Shown here: positions 5,779 through 24,911 of the stretch, piece after piece | How positions within the stretch are numbered: the first letter of the stretch is position 1 | How the letters are laid out: each line of letters opens with the position of its first letter | Virus record (IMG/VR): IMGVR_UViG_2630968800_000001 | Source of the DNA: a virus | Taxonomy: Duplodnaviria; Heunggongvirae; Uroviricota; Caudoviricetes | Length of the DNA stretch: 49,775 bases | Direction: 5' to 3' (one strand) | Notes under the pieces: model-generated | What the model was told of the DNA's origin: nothing | The model's input: only the letters and a program-made list of their open reading frames with translations | Database searches by the model: none | Made by a program: the position numbers and the translations under genes

Positions 5779-5842
5779 TGAGATAGCCTGAGTTTAACGG
5801 ACACTCCTTCCTGAAATAGAATGGCATCAGAAGGAGCTAATA

Positions 5843-6145
5843 ATGAGCAGAAAAACCCAACGTTACTCTAAAGAGTTCAAAGCCGAAGCTGTCAGAACGG
5901 TTCTTGAAAATCAACTTTCGATCAGTGAAGGCGCTTCCCGATTATCCCTTCCTGAAGGCACTTTAGGACAATGGGTTACCGCCGCCAGAAAAGGGCTCGG
6001 TACTCCTGGTTCCCGCACGGTGGCTGAACTGGAATCTGAAATTCTGCAACTGCGTAAGGCGTTAAATGAAGCTCGCCTTGAGCGCGATATATTAAAAAAA
6101 GCAACAGCGTATTTTGCACAGGAGTCGCTGAAAAATACGCGTTAA
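5843..6145 (+). CDS. IS600 OrfA (HTH transposase subunit)
   Basis: MSRKTQRYSKEFKAEAVRTV... 100 aa, typical IS3-family OrfA. Confidence 0.85.
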   Translation: MSRKTQRYSKEFKAEAVRTVLENQLSISEGASRLSLPEGTLGQWVTAARKGLGTPGSRTVAELESEILQLRKALNEARLERDILKKATAYFAQESLKNTR

Positions 6146-12797: not shown

Positions 12798-13703
12798 CTA
12801 TATTTCCAGACATCTGTTATCACTTAACCCATTACAAGCCCGCTGCCGCAGATATTCCCGTGGCGAGCGATAACCCAGCGCACTATGCGGATGCCATTCG
12901 TTATAATGCTCGAACGCCTCTGCAAGGTTCTTTGCTGCCGTTAACCCGTCTGGTTTGGGCATGATACTGATGTAGTCACGCTTTATCGTTTTCACGAAGC
13001 TCTCTGCTATTCCGTTACTCTCCGGACTCCGCACCGCCGTGTTCTTCGGTTCAAGTCCCAACATCCGGGCGAACTGGCGTGTTTCATTAGCCCGGTAGCA
13101 TGAACCATTATCCGTCAGCCACTCCACTGGAGACGACGGAAGATCGTTGCCGAAGCGGCGTTCCACCGCTCCCAGCATGACGTCCTGTACTGTTTCACTG
13201 TTGAAGCCGCCGGTAGTCCCCGCCCAGTGCAGTGCCTCACGATCACAGCAGTCCAGCGCGAACGTGACACGCAGTCTCTCTCCGTTATCACAGCAGAACT
13301 CGAACCCGTCAGAGCACCATCGCTGATTGCTTTCTTTCACGGCCACTCTGCCTGTATGTGCCCGTTTCGATGGCGGTACAGCAGGTTTTCGCTCAAGCAA
13401 CAGCGCATTCTGGCGCATGAGCCGGTAAACACGTTTGGCATTGATCGCAGGCATACCATCAAGTTCTGCCTGTCTGCGAAGCAGCGCCCATACCCGACGA
13501 TAACCATACGTGGGCAGCTCTCCGATAACATGGTGTATACGGAGAAGCACATCCGTATCATCAGTGTGACGACTGCGGCGGCCATCCATCCAGTCATCGG
13601 TTCGTCTGAGAATGACGTGCAACTGCGCACGCGACACCCGGAGACAACGGCTGACTAAGCTTACTCCCCATCCCCGGGCAATAAGGGCGCGTGCGCTATC
13701 CAC
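12798..13703 (-). CDS. insD: IS2 transposase InsD (OrfB)
   Basis: 301 aa recognised as IS2 InsD. Confidence 0.9.
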
Positions 13704-14026
13704 TTTTTTGCCCGTCCATATTCAACGGCTTCTTTGAGGAGTTCATTTTCCATCGTTTTCTTGCCGAGCAGGCGCTGGAGTTCTTTAATCTGCTTCATGG
13801 CGGCAGCAAGTTCAGAGGCAGGAACAACCTGTTCTCCGGCGGCCACAGCAGTAAGACTTCCTTCCTGGTATTGCTTACGCCAGAGAAATAGCTGGCTGGC
13901 TGCTACACCATGTTGCCGGGCAACGAGGGAGACCGTCATCCCCGGTTCAAAGCTCTGCTGAACAATTGCGATCTTTTCCTGTGTGGTACGCCGTCTGCGT
14001 TTCTCCGGCCCTAAGACATCAATCAT
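13661..14026 (-). CDS. insC: IS2 InsC (OrfA)
   Basis: [24 protein letters not shown]... 121 aa recognised as IS2 InsC. Confidence 0.9.
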
Positions 14027-14117
14027 CTGTTCTCCAATGACTAGTCTAAAAACTAGTATTAAGACTATCACTTAAATAAGTGATACTGGTTGTCTGGAGA
14101 TTCAGGGGGCCAGTCTA

Positions 14118-16295: not shown

Positions 16296-16541
16296 CTACC
16301 CCCCAAGGCATTGGATCCTGATGTACTCCTGAAGCATTCTCAATGCTGTCTGGTCGCTGATGATTCCGTCCCGGATACCGAGAACGTTTCGTCCAGCAAC
16401 TGGAGAGAGTTCGACGGTGGCATCATTGCCCATGCCGGAGGCGCTGGAGGTTTCGGCTGAGGATGGCACAGGGCATTTTCCTTTGACGAGCACCCGACCA
16501 CCATTATCAAGCTTGCGCCGAAGAGCATCATTTTCAGCTTT
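16296..16541 (-). pseudogene. Rz: spanin Rz, 5'-truncated by IS911
   Basis: Encodes ...[20 protein letters not shown]...GIRDGIISDQTALRMLQEYIRIQCLGG*; 16365-16541 is the reverse complement of 23471-23647. Confidence 0.8.
16340..16541 (-). pseudogene. Rz1: o-spanin Rz1, lacking its first 2 codons (IS911 junction)
   Basis: +1 frame inside Rz: ...[37 protein letters not shown]..., lipobox VVGC. Confidence 0.6.
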
Positions 16542-16613
16542 TGAAGTGGCACACTGAATTTGGCCACCTGAACAGAGGTGATATGCTCACCTCAGAACAA
16601 CACAGGTGCTCCA

Positions 16614-17782
<1,169 letters not shown>

Positions 17783-17810
17783 CCACTTCAGACATTCTGA
17801 GGTGACAGCG

Positions 17811-18689
17811 ATGATGACGTTTAACCTGCGTGAACAACAAAAAAGACTACAGGCGCGAATGGATGAGTTACGGGCAGAGATTGCATTTGCTCAGAAGGGC
17901 GAAAAGCCATGGCCTTATCGTTCCTGCCTGATGCGTGAAGGTCGCGGATATTGCGAAAAACATGGCGAATATCACACGCATATACTGGTGTGGAGCGATC
18001 GTAATGGCGAGGACAGAGAAGAAATTTCATGCTGCCCTGACTGCTTAATCGCTGAGGCCAACGATTTGACCATGGAGCTGTCGTCCATCAAGGCGGAAGA
18101 GCTGACTGATAACGCCGGAATTGCCCTGCGTTTTCGGGACTGCGAGTTTGATAATTATCTGGAGGTTAATCCTGGCGCAGCCAGAAATCTTGCGGCCTGT
18201 CGCCGCTATGCGGAGAACTGGCCAGATATGCTGGAGAACGGTACCAGTCTTGTTATGACCGGCAGTTGTGGTACCGGAAAAAATCATCTGGCTGTGGCTA
18301 TGGCAAAACACATCATCCGTAACTATCTGGCCAGTGTGGAGATCACCGACGTGATGCGCCTTACCCGTGCTGTGAAAAATTGCTGGCGGAATGACAGCGA
18401 AAAAACAGCGGATGAAGTTATTGAGCGTTATGCGTCAATGGATTTGCTGATCATCGACGAAGTTGGCGTTCAGTTTGGCAGCGCGGCTGAAATGGCTATT
18501 TTGCAGGAAATTATCAACGCCAGGTACGAAAGTATCTTGCCCACCATTCTGATCAGTAACCTCTCACCGGAAGAGTTGTGGGCGTTCATCAGTCCCCGAA
18601 TTGCCGACAGGATCACAGACGGGGGACGCAACTGGTTGTCGTTTAACTGGCCCAGTTACCGTTCTCGTATCAGAGGTGTGGCTGCATGA
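17811..18689 (+). CDS. DnaC/IstB-like replication helicase loader with Cys/His-rich N-terminal domain
   Basis: Walker A GSCGTGKNHLAVAMA; N-terminus has a C..C..H..H..CC..C cluster; RBS GAGGTG 4 nt upstream; gene starts 21 nt after the IS911 end. Confidence 0.75.
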   Translation: MMTFNLREQQKRLQARMDELRAEIAFAQKGEKPWPYRSCLMREGRGYCEKHGEYHTHILVWSDRNGEDREEISCCPDCLIAEANDLTMELSSIKAEELTDNAGIALRFRDCEFDNYLEVNPGAARNLAACRRYAENWPDMLENGTSLVMTGSCGTGKNHLAVAMAKHIIRNYLASVEITDVMRLTRAVKNCWRNDSEKTADEVIERYASMDLLIIDEVGVQFGSAAEMAILQEIINARYESILPTILISNLSPEELWAFISPRIADRITDGGRNWLSFNWPSYRSRIRGVAA

Positions 18690-20077
18690 CAACTCCAGTA
18701 TGGCGTAACGATGACCTTGAAGGCGCTGTCATCGGCGCGTTCTTTCTGCGCGGAGCAGATCCTGAAGTGATGGATATTCTGGCCACACTGCCAGCGGACG
18801 TTTTTTCTGTACGAGCGTATCAGGATATCTATACAGGCATCTGCAGACAGGCCCGTGTTTCAGGAGTGATTGACCCCGTGCTGTTGTGTAATGAGATGCC
18901 GGAACTTGCCCCGGTGATTACTGATACCGGGCGTAAAACCTGGGTGAAGTCTTCACTGGAGCACTATGTTGCAGCGTTGCGGCGCAATGCCGCACTGCGC
19001 GATGCAGAAAAAACACTGAATGAGGCGCTGCAGAAATTACGTGATGCGCATACCTGTGAAGCAGCTGAAGATGCCCTGAAGGATGCGCAGAACATGATGG
19101 TCACACTGTCGACAGGAAAGGGCGTCATTCAGCCGGTACATATTGATGATGTGCTTCCGGAAGTGGTTGAGCGTGTTGAATGCCGGAATCAGGGGCTGGA
19201 GAAATCCAGGACGTTGATGACCGGTATTGATGAACTGGACGCAAAAACAGGCGGTATGGAGCCCGGAGACCTGGTATTCATTGCCGCCCGTCCTTCGATG
19301 GGGAAAACCGAACTTGCGCTGGACATCATCGACAAGGTGACTGAGCAGGGGCATGGTGTGCTTCTGTTCACCATGGAGATGGCGAACATCCAGATTGGTG
19401 AACGTATGGTGTCTGCGGCTGGAGGGATGCCAGTATCACGCCTGAAATCTGTGGCTCACTTTGAAGATGAAGACTGGACGCGTTTCTCACAAGGGGTGGG
19501 GCGGATGACCGGGCGCAATATCTGGATGGTGGACCAGGCGAACCTGGCCATTGATGAGATATGCGCAACAACGAAACACCACCTGATTAAATATCCGGAA
19601 ACGGCGCTGGTGGTGGTTGATTATCTCGGGCTGATAAAAACCCGAACCACGGGGCGTCATGACCTTGCCGTGGGTGAAATCTCAAAGGGGCTTAAAGGCC
19701 TGGCAAAATCCGGTGGTTTTCCGTTGATTGCGCTGAGCCAGCTCTCCCGCGGTGTGGAGTCCAGACCCAATAAACGTCCCATGAACTCAGACCTGAAAAA
19801 TTCCGGAGAAATAGAGGCGGATGCAGACATCATTCTGATGCTTTACAGGGATGAAGTGTACAACCCGGATACGCAGGCCAGGGGCATCGCAGAAATCAAT
19901 ATCACGAAACAACGTAACGGTTCTCTGGGAACGATTTACCGGCGTTTTTATAACGGACATTTTCTGCCTGTGGACCAGGAAAGTGCACGGGTGCTTTCCA
20001 CTCCCATGAAGCCCGGCAATCCGCGCAGATACAGTAATAAACGAACTGACAGCAGTAAGATGGAGCGTTTCTTTTGA
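18686..20077 (+). CDS. DnaB-family replicative helicase
   Basis: 463 aa; Walker A ARPSMGKT; translationally coupled to the upstream loader gene. Confidence 0.85.
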   Translation: MTTPVWRNDDLEGAVIGAFFLRGADPEVMDILATLPADVFSVRAYQDIYTGICRQARVSGVIDPVLLCNEMPELAPVITDTGRKTWVKSSLEHYVAALRRNAALRDAEKTLNEALQKLRDAHTCEAAEDALKDAQNMMVTLSTGKGVIQPVHIDDVLPEVVERVECRNQGLEKSRTLMTGIDELDAKTGGMEPGDLVFIAARPSMGKTELALDIIDKVTEQGHGVLLFTMEMANIQIGERMVSAAGGMPVSRLKSVAHFEDEDWTRFSQGVGRMTGRNIWMVDQANLAIDEICATTKHHLIKYPETALVVVDYLGLIKTRTTGRHDLAVGEISKGLKGLAKSGGFPLIALSQLSRGVESRPNKRPMNSDLKNSGEIEADADIILMLYRDEVYNPDTQARGIAEINITKQRNGSLGTIYRRFYNGHFLPVDQESARVLSTPMKPGNPRRYSNKRTDSSKMERFF

Positions 20078-20331
20078 ACAACCAGACAATGACTTTTACC
20101 CCTGAACAATTGCGTAAACACGCGCAGGAAATGCTGCGTCATGCTGAACAACTCGAAAAAACGGGCATAACAAAAGATGCTATCCGTAAAGATATGGTAC
20201 CCGCGCTTCGGGAACTGATGCAGGCGAAGCATCGCGCACAGAAAGCAGTAGATGAGCTGGTGGACTGTGTGGCAGAGCTGGAAACCAGAGTCGGAAAGTT
20301 TGAAAAACTGGTGCAGGAGGCGCTGCGCTGA
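20074..20331 (+). CDS. hypothetical phage protein (85 aa, helical)
   Basis: Coupled to the helicase stop; no recognisable family. Confidence 0.35.
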   Translation: MNNQTMTFTPEQLRKHAQEMLRHAEQLEKTGITKDAIRKDMVPALRELMQAKHRAQKAVDELVDCVAELETRVGKFEKLVQEALR

Positions 20332-20425
20332 TGCGCCATGAGTTTGTTTTGCCCTGGCTTGTGCGCGATCATTATGTCCCTGGTGGAAAGCCCGGGATAA
20401 AAATCACCGAACCGGAGAGTATTTG

Positions 20426-20626
20426 ATGAGCGTCAAAATTCAAACGATACCGGAACTGCTTATCCAGACACGAGGTAATATGACCGAAGTTTCACGAATG
20501 CTGAACTGTAATCGCGCCACGGTAAGAAAATATGCTGAAGATAAAGAGGGCAAAGGGCACGCCATTGTTGATGGTGTTCTGATTGTTCATCGTGGATGGG
20601 ACAGGGGTAAAGACAGTGATGCGTGA
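20426..20626 (+). CDS. ninH: NinH
   Basis: [58 protein letters not shown] closely resembles lambda NinH. Confidence 0.75.
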
Positions 20627-20999
20627 TATTCAGCAGGTTCTTGAGCGCTGGGGCGCGTGGGTGGCTAATAATCATGAGGATGTGACCTGGTCGTCCATTG
20701 CTGCCGGTTTTAAGGGATTAATCCCTTCAAAAGTAAAATCCCGCCCGCAATGCTGTGACGATGACGCGATGGTTATATGTGGGTGTATGGCCCGCCTTAA
20801 CCGGAACAACAACGATCTACATGACTTGCTGGTTGACTACTACGTGTTTGGGATGACATTCATGACGCTGGCGCGGAAGCATGGATGCTCAGATGGTTAT
20901 ATAGGAAAGAAGCTACAAAAAGCCGAGGGGGTGGTGGAAGGAATGTTGATGATGTTGGGTGTCCGGTTAGAAATGGACAAATATATTGAACATCCCTGA
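20619..20999 (+). CDS. Q: late antiterminator Q (phage 82 / DLP12 QuuD type)
   Basis: [26 protein letters not shown]...[16 protein letters not shown]... zinc-binding Q family; followed by a promoter/terminator region. Confidence 0.8.
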
Positions 21000-21004
21000 T
21001 GGTA

Positions 21005-21085
21005 AGGGGCGACTTTCTAGAAAATATTTTACGTACGTAAAAAACGGGATATTCTGTTAAGAGTGGTTGCTTCGCCACACAGCTT
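21005..21085 (+). promoter_or_regulatory. probable late promoter pR' / qut region
   Basis: Position between Q and the downstream terminator, by analogy with lambdoid pR'-qut-tR'; exact -35/-10 not resolved. Confidence 0.3.
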
Positions 21086-21110
21086 AAACCCGCCTCCGGG
21101 CGGGTTTTTT
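21086..21110 (+). terminator. tR'-like rho-independent terminator
   Basis: AAACCCGCC-tccg-GGCGGGTTT stem followed by TTTTTT. Confidence 0.65.
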
Positions 21111-21198
21111 ATGCCTGAAAAACGGTACAGGACGTTAAACACGCTGGTGGTCAGATGAGTTTGCAGATGTGATGACATATGGTTATTATTCTGCCTCC

Positions 21199-21275
21199 GG
21201 CCCTTTAGCTCAGTTGGTCAGAGCGAGCGACTCATAATCGCCAGGTCGCTGGTTCAAGTCCAGCAAGGGCCACCA
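21199..21275 (+). tRNA. tRNA-Ile(CAU) (ileX-like; could be read as Met)
   Basis: Cloverleaf GGCCCTT...AAGGGCC-A-CCA, anticodon loop CTCATAA, close to E. coli ileX. Confidence 0.8.
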
Positions 21276-21276
21276 A

Positions 21277-21353
21277 CCACCACTAGCTCATCCGGATAGA
21301 GCATCAACCTTCTAAGTTGACGGTGCGAGGTTCGAGTCCTCGGTGGTGGGCCA
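21277..21353 (+). tRNA. tRNA-Arg(UCU)
   Basis: Acceptor CCACCAC/GTGGTGG, anticodon loop CTTCTAA, T-loop TTCGAGT, CCA encoded. Confidence 0.75.
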
Positions 21354-21355
21354 GC

Positions 21356-21431
<76 letters not shown>

Positions 21432-21434
21432 TAT

Positions 21435-21509
<75 letters not shown>

Positions 21510-21515
21510 GTCAGA

Positions 21516-21641
21516 GTCTTTCAGTCTGCGATGATGGGAAATCCCGGAGTGACTGAAAGACGTTTAAGTTATGAATGATCGCCTTTTTTTGCAAAATTGC
21601 TGTGCAGAAATACTAACCTTCGGGCGTGCGATCATTCATAA
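21516..21641 (+). other. two long inverted repeats in the late-transcript leader
   Basis: Hairpin 1: 11-bp stem GTCTTTCAGTC / GACTGAAAGAC (21516-21526 / 21551-21561); hairpin 2: 14-bp stem TTATGAATGATCGC / GCGATCATTCATAA (21569-21582 / 21628-21641). Confidence 0.5.
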
Positions 21642-21801
21642 GCACTCTGCTTTTATTCCGATTAACTGTGGGTGGTTTGTTGGATAGAGTGCTTTCCTTA
21701 CTGTATATATCGTTTCGCCCGCTTTTGCGTTTTTTTCTTTTCAAATCCCTTTCATTTCTCAGTGTAAAACTACGCCATCCGTTATTTGCGGAGGTGAGGC
21801 T

Positions 21802-22017
21802 ATGAAATCCATGGACAAAATTTCAACGGGCATTGCCTACGGCACCTCCGCCGGCAGTGCCGGCTACTGGTTTTTGCAGTGGTTGGATCAGGTCAGGCCA
21901 TCACAGTGGGCTGCGATTGGTGTGCTGGGAAGTCTGCTTCTGGGGCTTCTGACTTATCTGACGAATCTGTATTTCAAAATAAGAGAAGACAAGCGTAAGG
22001 CTGCACGGGGAGAGTAA
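21802..22017 (+). CDS. S: class II holin, S21-type pinholin
   Basis: 71 aa [31 protein letters not shown]...[17 protein letters not shown], dual-start motif, near-identical to phage 21 S as recalled. Confidence 0.85.
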
Positions 22018-22020
22018 ATA

Positions 22021-22650
22021 ATGAAGCATGAAGAAATGAATCAGCGATTCAATCACCTGGAAAATGAAATCACTGAGCTTAATAAAAAATTGTCGGCGTT
22101 GGTGAGTTCTGAAGATGAAAACAAACGCCGCGATGAGCATTATGCGGCGATTTACGATTACTGCCACAAAGTCGCTCACGAGACTTTTATGAAGTTTTTG
22201 CAGGAAAAGTTTTTACCGGCCGCATTGTCAGAAAAAGAGGCGGCTTACCTGCGGCCTGAGTACGTCATTACGGTTAACAGTGCCGGAGAGGAAGAGCATA
22301 AAAGTGATTTTATTGCGTCTGCACCGGATAAAGACCAGGAACCCCATCGGCCTTTCAGGGTTTCCTGTGAAGAGGGTGAGTTCGTCGTTTATGAGAACGG
22401 AAAACCTGTCCGGGCATCGCATCATCACTGCCTGAAAATTATTAATCTCGCTATCAGATGCCTGAAAGACGAAAACACCAGAGTTATGAAACGCATTGGC
22501 CGTTGCATGGGGTATTTGCAGGTGGCGGCAGAGATTGAAGCACTTGCCAGTGGTGCAGACATGGATGCTGCGGTGCGGGAGGCTCTTCTTCGTGATTTCA
22601 ATACTCCCCCTTTAAGAAAGAGCCTGATGACTGGATCCAGCCGGGGCTGA
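22021..22650 (+). CDS. hypothetical protein, 209 aa, inserted between holin and endolysin
   Basis: Intact ORF starting 4 nt after the holin stop; N-terminal heptad-like region, acidic, HHHC and C-x3-C residues; no family assigned. Confidence 0.55.
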   Translation: MKHEEMNQRFNHLENEITELNKKLSALVSSEDENKRRDEHYAAIYDYCHKVAHETFMKFLQEKFLPAALSEKEAAYLRPEYVITVNSAGEEEHKSDFIASAPDKDQEPHRPFRVSCEEGEFVVYENGKPVRASHHHCLKIINLAIRCLKDENTRVMKRIGRCMGYLQVAAEIEALASGADMDAAVREALLRDFNTPPLRKSLMTGSSRG

Positions 22651-22715
22651 CTTATCTTAAAAGGCGTATATAAGTTGGCTCGTTATTTGTTGCCGATAAA
22701 TCCTGATAAATATCC

Positions 22716-23249
22716 ATGAGCGCAAAAATCAAATACGGCCTGTCGGCTGCTGTTCTGGCGCTGATTGCCGCAGGCGCGTCTGCTCCCCAGATACTTGACC
22801 AGTTTCTGAACGAAAAAGAGGGTAATCACACAACGGCATACCGTGATGGTTCTGGCATATGGACCATCTGTCGTGGTGCCACAATGGTGGATGGTAAGCC
22901 TGTCATACCGGGAATGAAGCTGTCGAAGGAAAAATGTGACCAGGTTAACGCTATTGAACGTGATAAGGCGCTGGCATGGGTGGAGCGCAATATTAAAGTA
23001 CCTCTGACCGAACCCCAGAAAGCGGGTATAGCGTCATTTTGCCCCTATAACATTGGCCCCGGTAAGTGTTTCCCGTCGACGTTTTATAAGCGGCTGAATG
23101 CCGGTGATCGTAAGGGCGCATGCGAGGCGATTCGCTGGTGGATAAAAGATGTTGGGCGCGATTGCCGCATACGTTCAAATAACTGCTATGGACAGGTTAT
23201 TCGTCGTGACCAGGAAAGCGCATTAGCCTGTTGGGGGATAGATCAATGA
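22716..23249 (+). CDS. R: SAR endolysin (T4-lysozyme fold)
   Basis: N-terminal Gly/Ala-rich signal-anchor-release segment ([16 protein letters not shown]) then E-x8-D-x5-T catalytic triad. Confidence 0.85.
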
Positions 23250-23465
23250 GCAGAGTCACCGCGATTATCTCCGCTCTGGTTATCTGCATCATCGTCTGCC
23301 TGTCATGGGCTGTTAATCATTACCGTGATAACGCCATTACCTACAAAGAGCAGCGCGACAAAAACGCCGGAGAACTGAAGCTGGCGAACGCAACCATTAC
23401 TGACATGCAGCAGCGCCAGCGTGATGCTGATGCACTCGATGCTAAATACACGAAGGAGTTAGCTG

Positions 23466-23647
23466 ATGCGAAAGCTGAAAATGATGCTCTTCGGCGCAAG
23501 CTTGATAATGGTGGTCGGGTGCTCGTCAAAGGAAAATGCCCTGTGCCATCCTCAGCCGAAACCTCCAGCGCCTCCGGCATGGGCAATGATGCCACCGTCG
23601 AACTCTCTCCAGTTGCTGGACGAAACGTTCTCGGTATCCGGGACGGG
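23466..23647 (+). pseudogene. Rz1: o-spanin Rz1, 3'-truncated by IS600
   Basis: Embedded +1 frame [39 protein letters not shown]... Confidence 0.7.
23471..23647. repeat. 177-bp segment duplicated in inverse orientation at 16365-16541
   Basis: Direct base-by-base comparison: identical apart from the last base. Confidence 0.8.
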
Positions 23648-23711
23648 TGAGGTAGCCTGAGTTTAACGGACACTCCTTCCTGAAATAGAATGGCATCAGA
23701 AGGAGCTAATA

Positions 23712-24014
23712 ATGAGCAGAAAAACCCAACGTTACTCTAAAGAGTTCAAAGCCGAAGCTGTCAGAACGGTTCTTGAAAATCAACTTTCGATCAGTGAAGG
23801 CGCTTCCCGATTATCTCTTCCTGAAGGCACTTTAGGACAATGGGTTACCGCCGCCAGAAAAGGGCTCGGTACTCCTGGTTCCCGCACGCTGGCTGAACTG
23901 GAATCTGAAATTCTGCAACTGCGTAAGGCGTTAAATGAAGCTCGCCTTGAGCGAGATATATTAAAAAAAGCAACAGCGTATTTTGCACAGGAGTCGCTGA
24001 AAAATACGCGTTAA
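23712..24014 (+). CDS. IS600 OrfA
   Basis: Identical to copy 1 OrfA except V to L at one position. Confidence 0.85.
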   Translation: MSRKTQRYSKEFKAEAVRTVLENQLSISEGASRLSLPEGTLGQWVTAARKGLGTPGSRTLAELESEILQLRKALNEARLERDILKKATAYFAQESLKNTR

Positions 24015-24049
24015 TCGAACAATGGCGACAACAATTTCCCATTGAAGCG

Positions 24050-24868
24050 ATGTGTCAGGTATTTGGTGTATCCAGGAGCGGTTATTACAACTGGGTACAG
24101 CATGAACCCTCAGACAGAAAACAAAGTGATGAGCGGCTAAAACCGGAGATTAAGGTGGCACATATCCGCACTCGCGAAACATATGGAACCCGGCGGCTCC
24201 AGACGGAGCTGGCAGAGAATGGCATCATCGTTGGTCGTGACCGACTGGCACGTCTTCGTAAGGAGCTAAGGCTACGCTGTAAGCAGAAACGCAAGTTCAG
24301 AGCGACTACGAACCCGAACCACAATCTGCCAGTTGCGCCAAATCTGCTGAACCAGACGTTCGCTCCTACAGCACCAAATCAGGTCTGGGTGGCGGACCTG
24401 ACGTATGTTGCCACACAGGAGGGATGGTTGTACCTCGCTGGCATCAAAGATGTTTATACGTGTGAAATTGTCGGCTACGCCATGGGAGAGCGCATGACAA
24501 AAGAGCTGACAGGTAAAGCCCTGTTTATGGCGCTCAGGAGCCAGCGCCCACCTGCCGGGCTAATCCACCACTCTGATCGAGGTTCACAGTACTGCGCATA
24601 CGATTACCGGGTCATACAGGAGCAGTCTGGTCTGAAAACATCAATGTCGCGTAAAGGTAACTGTTACGACAATGCTCCGATGGAAAGCTTCTGGGGAACG
24701 CTGAAAAATGAGAGCCTGAGCCACTATCGTTTTAATAACCGGGATGAAGCCATCTCAGTAATACGGGAATACATTGAGATTTTCTACAATCGTCAGCGTC
24801 GTCACTCTCGTCTGGGGAATATCTCCCCGGCAGCCTTCAGGGAAAAATATCATCAGATGGCTGCTTAA
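24050..24868 (+). CDS. IS600 OrfB
   Basis: 272 aa; differs from copy 1 at 2 residues. Confidence 0.85.
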   Translation: MCQVFGVSRSGYYNWVQHEPSDRKQSDERLKPEIKVAHIRTRETYGTRRLQTELAENGIIVGRDRLARLRKELRLRCKQKRKFRATTNPNHNLPVAPNLLNQTFAPTAPNQVWVADLTYVATQEGWLYLAGIKDVYTCEIVGYAMGERMTKELTGKALFMALRSQRPPAGLIHHSDRGSQYCAYDYRVIQEQSGLKTSMSRKGNCYDNAPMESFWGTLKNESLSHYRFNNRDEAISVIREYIEIFYNRQRRHSRLGNISPAAFREKYHQMAA

Positions 24869-24911
24869 AAAAAGAACAAATGGTAGTGTCCGCTATTGCC
24901 AGTACACCTCA

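Follow-up and report, generated by a model that had tools for sequence, protein, structure and literature searches.

What is the role of a gene that lies between a phage holin gene and the endolysin gene, and is it still a working gene? The question is raised by the Caudoviricetes record IMGVR_UViG_2630968800_000001 (49,775 nucleotides (nt), hereafter the window), where an open reading frame (ORF) of 209 amino acids (aa) at 22021–22650 is present between an S21-type pinholin gene (S) and a lysozyme gene (R), as a first-pass annotation of the sequence had described. In that annotation the ORF was taken as intact, as unassignable to any family and as unusual in its place, holin and endolysin genes being regarded as normally adjacent. 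All three points had to be revised. Hidden Markov model (HMM) searches assign the ORF to PHROG 1085, as the C-terminal module (C-module) of long YdfR proteins; a 1-nt deletion at 22606–22610 has shifted the reading of its final 12 codons away from the ancestral frame; and a YdfR-family gene is found between S and R in 47 of 73 close cassettes.

Taken together, the ORF is best described as a domain-split, frameshifted variant of a catalogued but uncharacterised family, whose exact sequence is already public as a hypothetical protein. With a probability of about 0.55, we regard the window gene as an accessory gene outside lysis and probably as an impaired remnant; this copy was most likely passed on by clonal descent in Shigella flexneri and in a few Escherichia coli strains.

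Family membership and domain architecture

The ORF is a genuine protein-coding gene. The pairwise ratio of nonsynonymous to synonymous substitution rates (dN/dS) is 0.2–0.35 in its conserved core, indicating purifying selection, and homologues as distant as 25% identity exist, by which a chance ORF is ruled out; the N-terminal and middle parts are under laxer constraint (0.4 to >1). The whole ORF (residues 1–209, on profile positions 117–288 of 296) matches phrog_1085, a family of unknown function, with an E value of 1.2e-73 (249 bits). A homology search gave 132 homologues at E <1e-3, all from E. coli or Shigella. When 1.84 billion representative proteins were searched exhaustively with a profile, 39 came out at E <1e-3, and a further profile search brought in a branch from Salmonella with 25–35% identity. 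The family was seen only in prophages of E. coli, Shigella and Salmonella, every time beside a holin gene.

Many of the 132 homologues are 260–335-aa proteins named “YdfR family” or “DUF1327 domain-containing”, in which an N-terminal PF07041 domain is followed by a region homologous to the entire ORF. Because the long homologues are built in this way, the ORF is the free-standing C-terminal part of a long YdfR protein. For example, the gp05 protein of Stx2-converting phage 86 (YP_794052.1, 268 aa) and the E. coli proteins P0004 (333 aa) and P0090 (296 aa) share the same core with the ORF within their C-terminal ~200 residues, and their genes occupy the same slot, straight after an S21-type holin gene and before the lysozyme gene. 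The identity to the window ORF is 82% for P0004 and 58% for phage 86 gp05 (over residues 63–201). Compared with these proteins, the window ORF has no N-terminal DUF1327, and its tail has been frameshifted away. No PF07041 match was obtained in the ORF even at E up to 1, and its alignment with the fused relatives starts past their DUF1327. In the window, tblastn with the YdfR N-terminal domain gave nothing, thus a second YdfR-domain gene was not found there. In terms of membership, the profile match, the core motif and the holin-adjacent context place the ORF in PHROG 1085, although the conserved tail is lacking; it does not belong to DUF1327/YdfR, as that domain is absent from it.

The opposite half is found alone in the short YdfR proteins, such as YdfR of the K-12 Qin prophage (P76160, 103 aa, DUF1327/PF07041) and those of mEp460 and PhiR47_1, which are encoded in the same slot between an essQ-type holin and the lysozyme. 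They have no sequence overlap with the ORF, since they consist of the N-terminal domain only and the ORF of the C-terminal part only. More similar are unfused homologues of 205–222 aa, from Stx2a phage Stx2_12E129 (BCI50505.1) and from E. coli O145, O111 and O113 prophages, which comprise the coiled coil and the C-module at 61–89% identity and start right after the holin stop, like the window ORF. Unlike it, they keep the consensus tail ...FKKEPDxWIQPGLxYLKxRI and are usually followed by a ~100-aa antisense gene.

The core motif is present in 192 family sequences, of which 89 have the YdfR-like N-terminal domain and 103 lack it. In the Salmonella homologues, the N-terminal domain aligns with the E. 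coli YdfR domain/DUF1327 (hhalign probability 85%, E 7e-6; one weak PF07041 match), and the coiled-coil/variable linker, the conserved core and the conserved tail are retained. Since these distant members keep the N-terminal domain, core and tail, the fused architecture is old, and the short YdfR (~100 aa) and the stand-alone C-module (~205–220 aa) look like split derivatives of it. Moreover, E. coli FHI_NMBU_11 (L097, 2501–3397) has a 213-aa C-module gene and, 27 nt further, a divergent separate 75-aa DUF1327 gene, in reversed order relative to a long YdfR. With both halves encoded there as neighbouring genes, the YdfR domain and the C-module are linked by adjacency as well as by fusion.

The 209-aa protein is soluble. 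As first annotated, it has no transmembrane (TM) segment (Kyte-Doolittle means over 19 residues reach at most 0.76), its N-terminal region is heptad-like and its middle is acidic. The N-terminal region is a predicted helical hairpin with a moderate heptad pattern (11 of 18 a/d positions hydrophobic), and the middle (residues 61–110) has an isoelectric point (pI) of 4.8 and is predicted to be disordered. Residues 1–62 alone are matched by tblastn in slot proteins of PhiR12, Stx1 and Stx2_14744, whose C-termini are entirely different, so that the hairpin behaves like an adaptor common to several S–R slot proteins. In an alignment of 64 sequences (A4), H136, G160, G164, L166, Q167 and P197 are invariant, and all six are present in the window protein; the near-invariant motifs are KRxGRxMGxLQVAAEIEA and DF(D/N)xPPFKxxPxxWxxPGxxYLKxR.

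The AlphaFold2 (AF2) model was made for P0002, the nearest intact relative (89% identical), with the 64-sequence alignment; an earlier model on 16 sequences was unusable (predicted local distance difference test (pLDDT) score 48). In the later model, residues 110–200 reach pLDDT 79–89, with strands at 113–130 and helices at 134–149, 155–176 and 183–194, followed by a short tail helix (210–216). The hairpin covers residues 3–64, and 64–108 are disordered. The fold search that had been suggested as a check matched no known fold. Searches of the PDB sequences with the single protein and with the 64-sequence profile gave no match below E 0.05, and when the ORF and its relatives were scanned against Pfam, NCBIfam and PADLOC, only chance-level coiled-coil matches and weak DUF6200 matches (E 0.02–0.09) appeared. 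No enzymatic or sensor domain was found in the ORF by these domain scans.

Tail frameshift and state of the prophage

The damage at the 3' end can be read directly from the DNA. When one C is restored to the shortened run (Table 1), the frame continues to ...NTPPFKKEPDDWIQPGLTYLKRRI and a stop at 22671–22673, so that the consensus tail is back, and 42 nt would be left before R, the same as in relatives (4002 to 4045 in L004, the prophage encoding P0004). The C-terminal ends are ...NTPPFKKEPDDWIQPGLTYLK(G/R)RI in relatives versus ...NTPPLRKSLMTGSSRG in the window. The family tail motif FKKxPxxWxxPGxxYLKxRI is near-invariant and was found in 168 of 192 family sequences; F198, K199, W205, P208, G209, Y212, L213 and R216 are conserved in ≥90% of the 64 aligned sequences, down to 28% identity. 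The deletion has taken out one of the best-conserved parts of the family. It is recent, because the DNA 3' of the missing C is still identical to that of L004. At least three other family clusters (P0042, P0074 and P0136) end ...KKCRLTGFI..., after a separate frameshift a few bases 3' of the window's, in an AAGAAAG run; the tail-coding region seems to be indel-prone.

The frameshifted allele is not private to the window. It is also present in E. coli CFSAN029787, where the DNA is 99.8% identical and the product is annotated as a hypothetical protein (WP_001300760.1). The exact protein is recorded as “bacteriophage protein [Shigella flexneri]” on at least 1000 contigs. Together with the kinds of IS element in the window, this match suggests that the DNA comes from a chromosome of Shigella flexneri. 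The wide spread of the allele can also be explained by clonal descent.

The surrounding prophage has decayed too. Compared with the CFSAN029787 prophage (L001), the window is collinear over 17791–23646 and then carries an insertion sequence (IS), after which the match resumes ~2.5 kb later in the reference. The end of collinearity at 23646 corresponds to L001 position 9626, which is 67 nt short of the end of its “lysis protein” gene. The ~2.5 kb lost relative to CFSAN029787 includes the 3' end of Rz/Rz1, parDE, kilA-N and the 5' portion of terS, which encodes the small terminase subunit. As the insertion and the deletion truncate Rz/Rz1 and terS, the prophage is defective. The window copy is therefore probably impaired: the loss of a C from the six-base run exchanges the tail, and the prophage around it is defective.

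The holin–lysozyme slot and competing explanations

To see what normally stands in this position, we surveyed the 80 IMG/VR loci with the holins most similar to that of the window (≥90% identical), 73 of which have the lysozyme on the contig. The S–R slot contains a short YdfR gene in 45 of the 73 loci and a gene for YdfR plus coiled coil without the core in two, and S abuts R in the remaining 26; the C-module is found in none. A gene between holin and lysozyme is therefore normal for this type of cassette (YdfR-family genes in 47 of 73), which corrects the assumption that any gene in this place is anomalous. The C-module is dispensable for the cassette, because it is absent from all 73 cassettes with near-identical holins, 26 of which have an empty slot. 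It is also rare elsewhere. The S..R region was matched in 521 GenBank phage records, only two of which contain most of the ORF, and tblastn detected any part of the ORF in 20 of 50,697 phage records. Of 5,426 complete E. coli genomes, 92 gave any nucleotide match and 18 contain at least 80% of the ORF. The first-pass annotation had named absence or disruption in most close relatives as the result that would count against an undescribed function, and this is largely what was found, given the 0/73 cassettes, the 20 phage records and the disrupted 3' end of the window copy.

The ORF starts on the fourth nucleotide after the holin stop, which ends at 22017 (3 nt lie between the stop and the ATG at 22021), and 65 nt separate its stop from the lysozyme ATG, as originally annotated. 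From the holin stop to the lysozyme start, no promoter-like or terminator-like sites were found on the coding strand; the sole promoter-like match within the ORF is weak and on the opposite strand. Given the lack of such sites and the tRNA genes upstream, the ORF is probably co-transcribed with the lysis genes on the late transcript, as had been supposed. The Shine-Dalgarno-like GGGGAGAG inside the holin gene probably couples its translation to that of the holin.

The first-pass annotation had offered a lysis regulator or a cargo/defence moron as roles. The behaviour of the ORF is indeed accessory and moron-like, and nothing specific for a lysis regulator was found. Lambdoid late operons carry accessory genes (“morons”), among them stx, nanS-p, bor and lom, which are non-essential, patchy and placed between conserved late genes. 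Similarly, the content of the ORF's slot is swapped by recombination and differs among near-identical cassettes. Classical morons, which are flanked by a promoter and a terminator of their own, are expressed in lysogens. The ORF, by contrast, has no such sites on the coding strand and appears to be translationally coupled to the holin.

Five points weigh against the view of an accessory, impaired remnant and against the role we propose below for its intact relatives. Apart from the tail, the ORF of this allele is intact and is preceded by a good Shine-Dalgarno sequence; it is present on those Shigella contigs and may still function. Independent tail frameshifts occurred in at least three other lineages (P0042, P0074, P0136), and the tail could be dispensable or switchable. 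The constant adjacency to a holin gene in two genera also fits a lysis-related role. The link to RNase E relies on a domain that is absent from the ORF and on a single study in which few transcripts changed. For the C-module itself, neither a fold nor a motif match points to an activity.

These points lead to the alternatives. A fully functional window allele, with the 12-residue tail tolerated or adaptive, or with the old tail restored by –1 slippage on the C CCU UUA heptamer, is in our opinion quite unlikely. It would be in line with the fixation of the allele on the Shigella contigs and in several complete E. coli genomes, with the tail frameshifts of other lineages and with the exact match of the DNA 3' of the deletion to the intact relative. 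The deletion does create an X XXY YYZ-type heptamer, and from the sequence a –1 shift would read ...KKEPDDWIQPGLTYLKRRI. However, the downstream identity merely reflects how recent the deletion is, the tail is among the best-conserved parts of the family, and clonal inheritance in a defective prophage needs no selection. A programmed –1 frameshift on CCCUUUA was rejected, as the RNA downstream of the heptamer has no stimulatory structure (z-score 0.43; of 200 shuffled sequences, 132 fold equally well or better). Almost no weight can be given to a zinc- or metal-binding protein based on the HHHC...C cluster noted in the first reading of the sequence. H134-H135-H136-C137 is present, with C147 and C162 within 30 residues, but C-x3-C occurs nowhere: the cysteines are at 48, 116, 137, 147 and 162, with the spacing C137-x9-C147-x14-C162. 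Moreover, H136 alone is invariant. H134 and H135 are replaced (SHQH or SHRH in E. coli; THRHR, TSEHR or TYDHR, for example, in Salmonella), C137 is changed to S/R, C147 to Y, E, D or others, and C162 to S/A, and the metal cluster was rejected since its ligand residues are not conserved.

The place of the ORF, 3 nt past the holin stop with its Shine-Dalgarno sequence within the holin gene, invites the idea of a lysis-timing regulator, in which a cytoplasmic coiled-coil protein would bind the charged cytoplasmic tail of the holin or the SAR (signal-anchor-release) endolysin before its release and so tune the lysis trigger. The family stands beside holin genes of two types (PF04971 and PF16080), after them in E. 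coli and before them in Salmonella. The same observation shows that the side of the holin is not fixed, and we regard this role as improbable for several reasons. The C-module is absent from every one of the 73 cassettes with a ≥90% identical holin, and the slot is empty in 26. Known antiholins use a TM or periplasmic segment, whereas the ORF has neither. Half of the family carries a domain that was shown to bind RNase E rather than lysis proteins, and the Q–S and S–R intervals are general accessory sites, with HicAB, ParDE, Tad2-like and nanS-type esterase genes nearby. Cargo for defence, superinfection exclusion or anti-defence carried in the lysis region would be in line with such neighbours: relatives have genes for HicAB, ParDE, a DNA methyltransferase and a Tad2-like protein close by, the distribution is patchy and rare, the architecture is mosaic and domain-shuffled, and dN/dS is raised in the N-terminal and middle segments. 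Such a cargo role is nevertheless unlikely. PADLOC-DB models match neither the ORF nor P0004, and P0090 gives only a chance-level PbeC match (E 0.018); no enzymatic or sensor domain was detected. In addition, without a coding-strand promoter-like site of its own the gene would be silent in the lysogen and its product made only minutes before lysis. A late anti-defence role may apply to the ORF family. An accessory gene outside lysis, probably impaired in the window, accordingly remains our preferred explanation.

A possible role of intact relatives

In the literature on YdfR, DUF1327 and phrog_1085, nothing functional was found beyond one study of K-12 YdfR (PMC13232886). In that study, residues 1–72 of YdfR bind the N-terminal catalytic half of RNase E in two-hybrid and pull-down/co-purification assays, YdfR co-purifies with RNA, and its overproduction alters few transcripts (PMC13232886). 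No counterpart of residues 1–72 exists in the ORF. A hit for ydfR in an envelope-integrity screen is also mentioned (PMC13232886). In our view, an insertion in ydfR could act there through the downstream lysozyme gene.

On this basis we tentatively suggest a mechanism for the intact long YdfR proteins, which we would still call doubtful. A full-length protein (~260–335 aa) consists of the N-terminal DUF1327/YdfR domain, the coiled-coil linker and the C-module (three strands, three helices and the tail), and would be cytoplasmic and made in the last phase of infection. Its YdfR domain might bind RNase E at the catalytic half, where K-12 YdfR is reported to bind, while the coiled coil would oligomerise or pair modules and the C-module would serve as the partner-binding or effector half. 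The assembled protein may then change how host RNA decays at the late stage of infection, instead of acting on the holin or endolysin. The window gene, with its coiled coil and C-module but no YdfR domain, is one occupant of the variable slot between S21 holin and lysozyme. Free-standing C-modules could act in trans, at times beside a separately encoded YdfR domain, or could be remnants.

Phage modulators of RNase E include T7 gp0.7, T4 Srd and phiKZ Dip. If the reasoning on YdfR holds, the intact family would resemble them in the mode of action only, as phage proteins that engage RNase E in lytic growth; there is no sequence or fold similarity, and the RNase E-binding domain is absent from the ORF. 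In a bolder version, which we think improbable, the C-module would be the effector half of a phage system that had gone unrecognised. The system would have two parts (fused, split or permuted), would be co-made with the holin and would reprogram host or phage RNA decay just before lysis. On that view, genes that stand alone, among them an intact form of the window gene, would be trans-acting subunits that join through the shared coiled coil.

For this window, the significance is minor: a damaged passenger gene in a dead prophage, whose exact protein is already catalogued as hypothetical. For the family, the YdfR slot of S21-type cassettes can be seen as a modular protein set, in which the YdfR domain, the coiled coil and the C-module are variously combined. 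The C-module is tied to the YdfR domain by old fusion and by adjacency, and the YdfR domain was shown to bind RNase E. This connection of a module beside the holin with a domain that binds RNase E is a modest lead from an otherwise ordinary and decaying locus. It turns a K-12 y-gene and hypothetical genes of Stx phages into a testable hypothesis on the control of RNA decay late in infection.

Features of the lysis region and its relatives

The coordinates are collected in Table 1. The Gly/Ala-rich N-terminal segment of the lysozyme looks like a SAR domain, judging from its composition.

Table 1. Positions of features in and around the lysis cassette (window coordinates unless another locus is named)
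Feature	Position	Strand	Basis and remarks
tRNA cluster Met-CAT, Arg-TCT, Thr-TGT, Gly-TCC	21199..21509	+	ARAGORN; between Q-like gene and holin
S21-type class II holin (pinholin family), 71 aa	21802..22017	+	PF04971, E 5.5e-35; phrog_9876/phrog_20 holin
Shine-Dalgarno-like GGGGAGAG	22007..22014	+	Within the 3' end of the holin gene; 6-8 nt 5' of the ORF ATG; read from sequence
209-aa ORF	22021..22650	+	ATG start; assigned as free-standing C-module form of the long-YdfR / PHROG 1085 family, tail frameshifted
Residues 1-64, predicted helical hairpin / coiled-coil adaptor	22021..22212	+	AF2 helices 3-27, 31-64; dN/dS 0.4-1.1
Residues 65-107, acidic variable linker, indel-rich, predicted disordered	22213..22341	+	pLDDT <50 at 64-108; indels in alignments A1, A3
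Residues 108-197, conserved core	22342..22611	+	Three short strands then three helices; pLDDT 79-89; dN/dS 0.2-0.35
C5 run, site of the 1-nt deletion	22606..22610	+	Six bases in relatives (CCCCCC or CCGCCC); DNA alignment A2 against L004, L008, L002
Ancestral tail frame FKKEPDDWIQPGLTYLKRRI	22611..22673	+	Intact at DNA level, stop 22671-22673; identical to L004 save the missing C
Out-of-frame tail LRKSLMTGSSRG + stop	22612..22650	+	12 unrelated residues in place of the conserved 20-residue tail; DNA alignment, repaired translation
Phage lysozyme R, 177 aa	22716..23249	+	PF00959, E 5.4e-24; phrog_7 endolysin
Rz spanin gene	23246..23650	+	Rz1 embedded at 23466-23660; 3' end cut by IS insertion at 23646/23647
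IS3-family element	23647..24910	+	orfA 23712-24014, orfB 24050-24868; inserted in the Rz/Rz1 3' end
Antisense ~95-105-aa gene of relatives	L002 3777-4091; L010 2293-2607; L098 3154-3468; L097 3402-3689; L008 749-1060	-	

The arrangement of a tRNA cluster upstream of the lysis cassette is also annotated in CFSAN029787 and PhiR47_1. In CFSAN029787, RefSeq gives the first tRNA (CAT) as tRNA-Ile, presumably with a lysidine-modified CAT anticodon, and PhiR47_1 has a Met/Lys/Thr/Gly set at the same place.

The surroundings of the C-module differ among relatives. All E. coli copies are located between S and R, and the Salmonella homologues (L012–L016) are encoded directly upstream of a holin gene of PF04971 or PF16080 type, after the Q antiterminator gene and a hicAB pair. 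One of these Salmonella loci (L014) has an N6/N4 DNA methyltransferase gene between lysozyme and Rz. In most relatives with a C-module, an antisense gene for a hypothetical protein of ~95–105 aa, absent from the window, is located between the C-module gene and the lysozyme gene, and PhiR12 phages have a “DUF1823” protein where others have this antisense gene. The antisense gene could be a true moron that has a promoter of its own. P0004, the nearest fused relative, is encoded in an E. coli prophage in which the gene after Rz is Tad2-like (L004 5092–5613, PF11195), another sign that the flanks of this lysis cassette gather accessory or anti-defence genes.

Several mobile elements were found in the window. 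The element inserted in Rz/Rz1 is presumably IS600, and a 300-nt partial second copy of it (99% identical) is located at 5779–6078. About 7 kb upstream of the lysis cassette, an inverted 224-nt fragment (16318–16541) is 97% identical to the 3' end of the reference Rz and is directly adjoined by another IS3-family element (16578–17782), which we take to be IS911. The presence of the Rz fragment beside an IS suggests that an IS-mediated inversion or rearrangement split the prophage. An ORF at 13661–14071 resembles the IS2 orfA product, which would be the third IS type within 10 kb.

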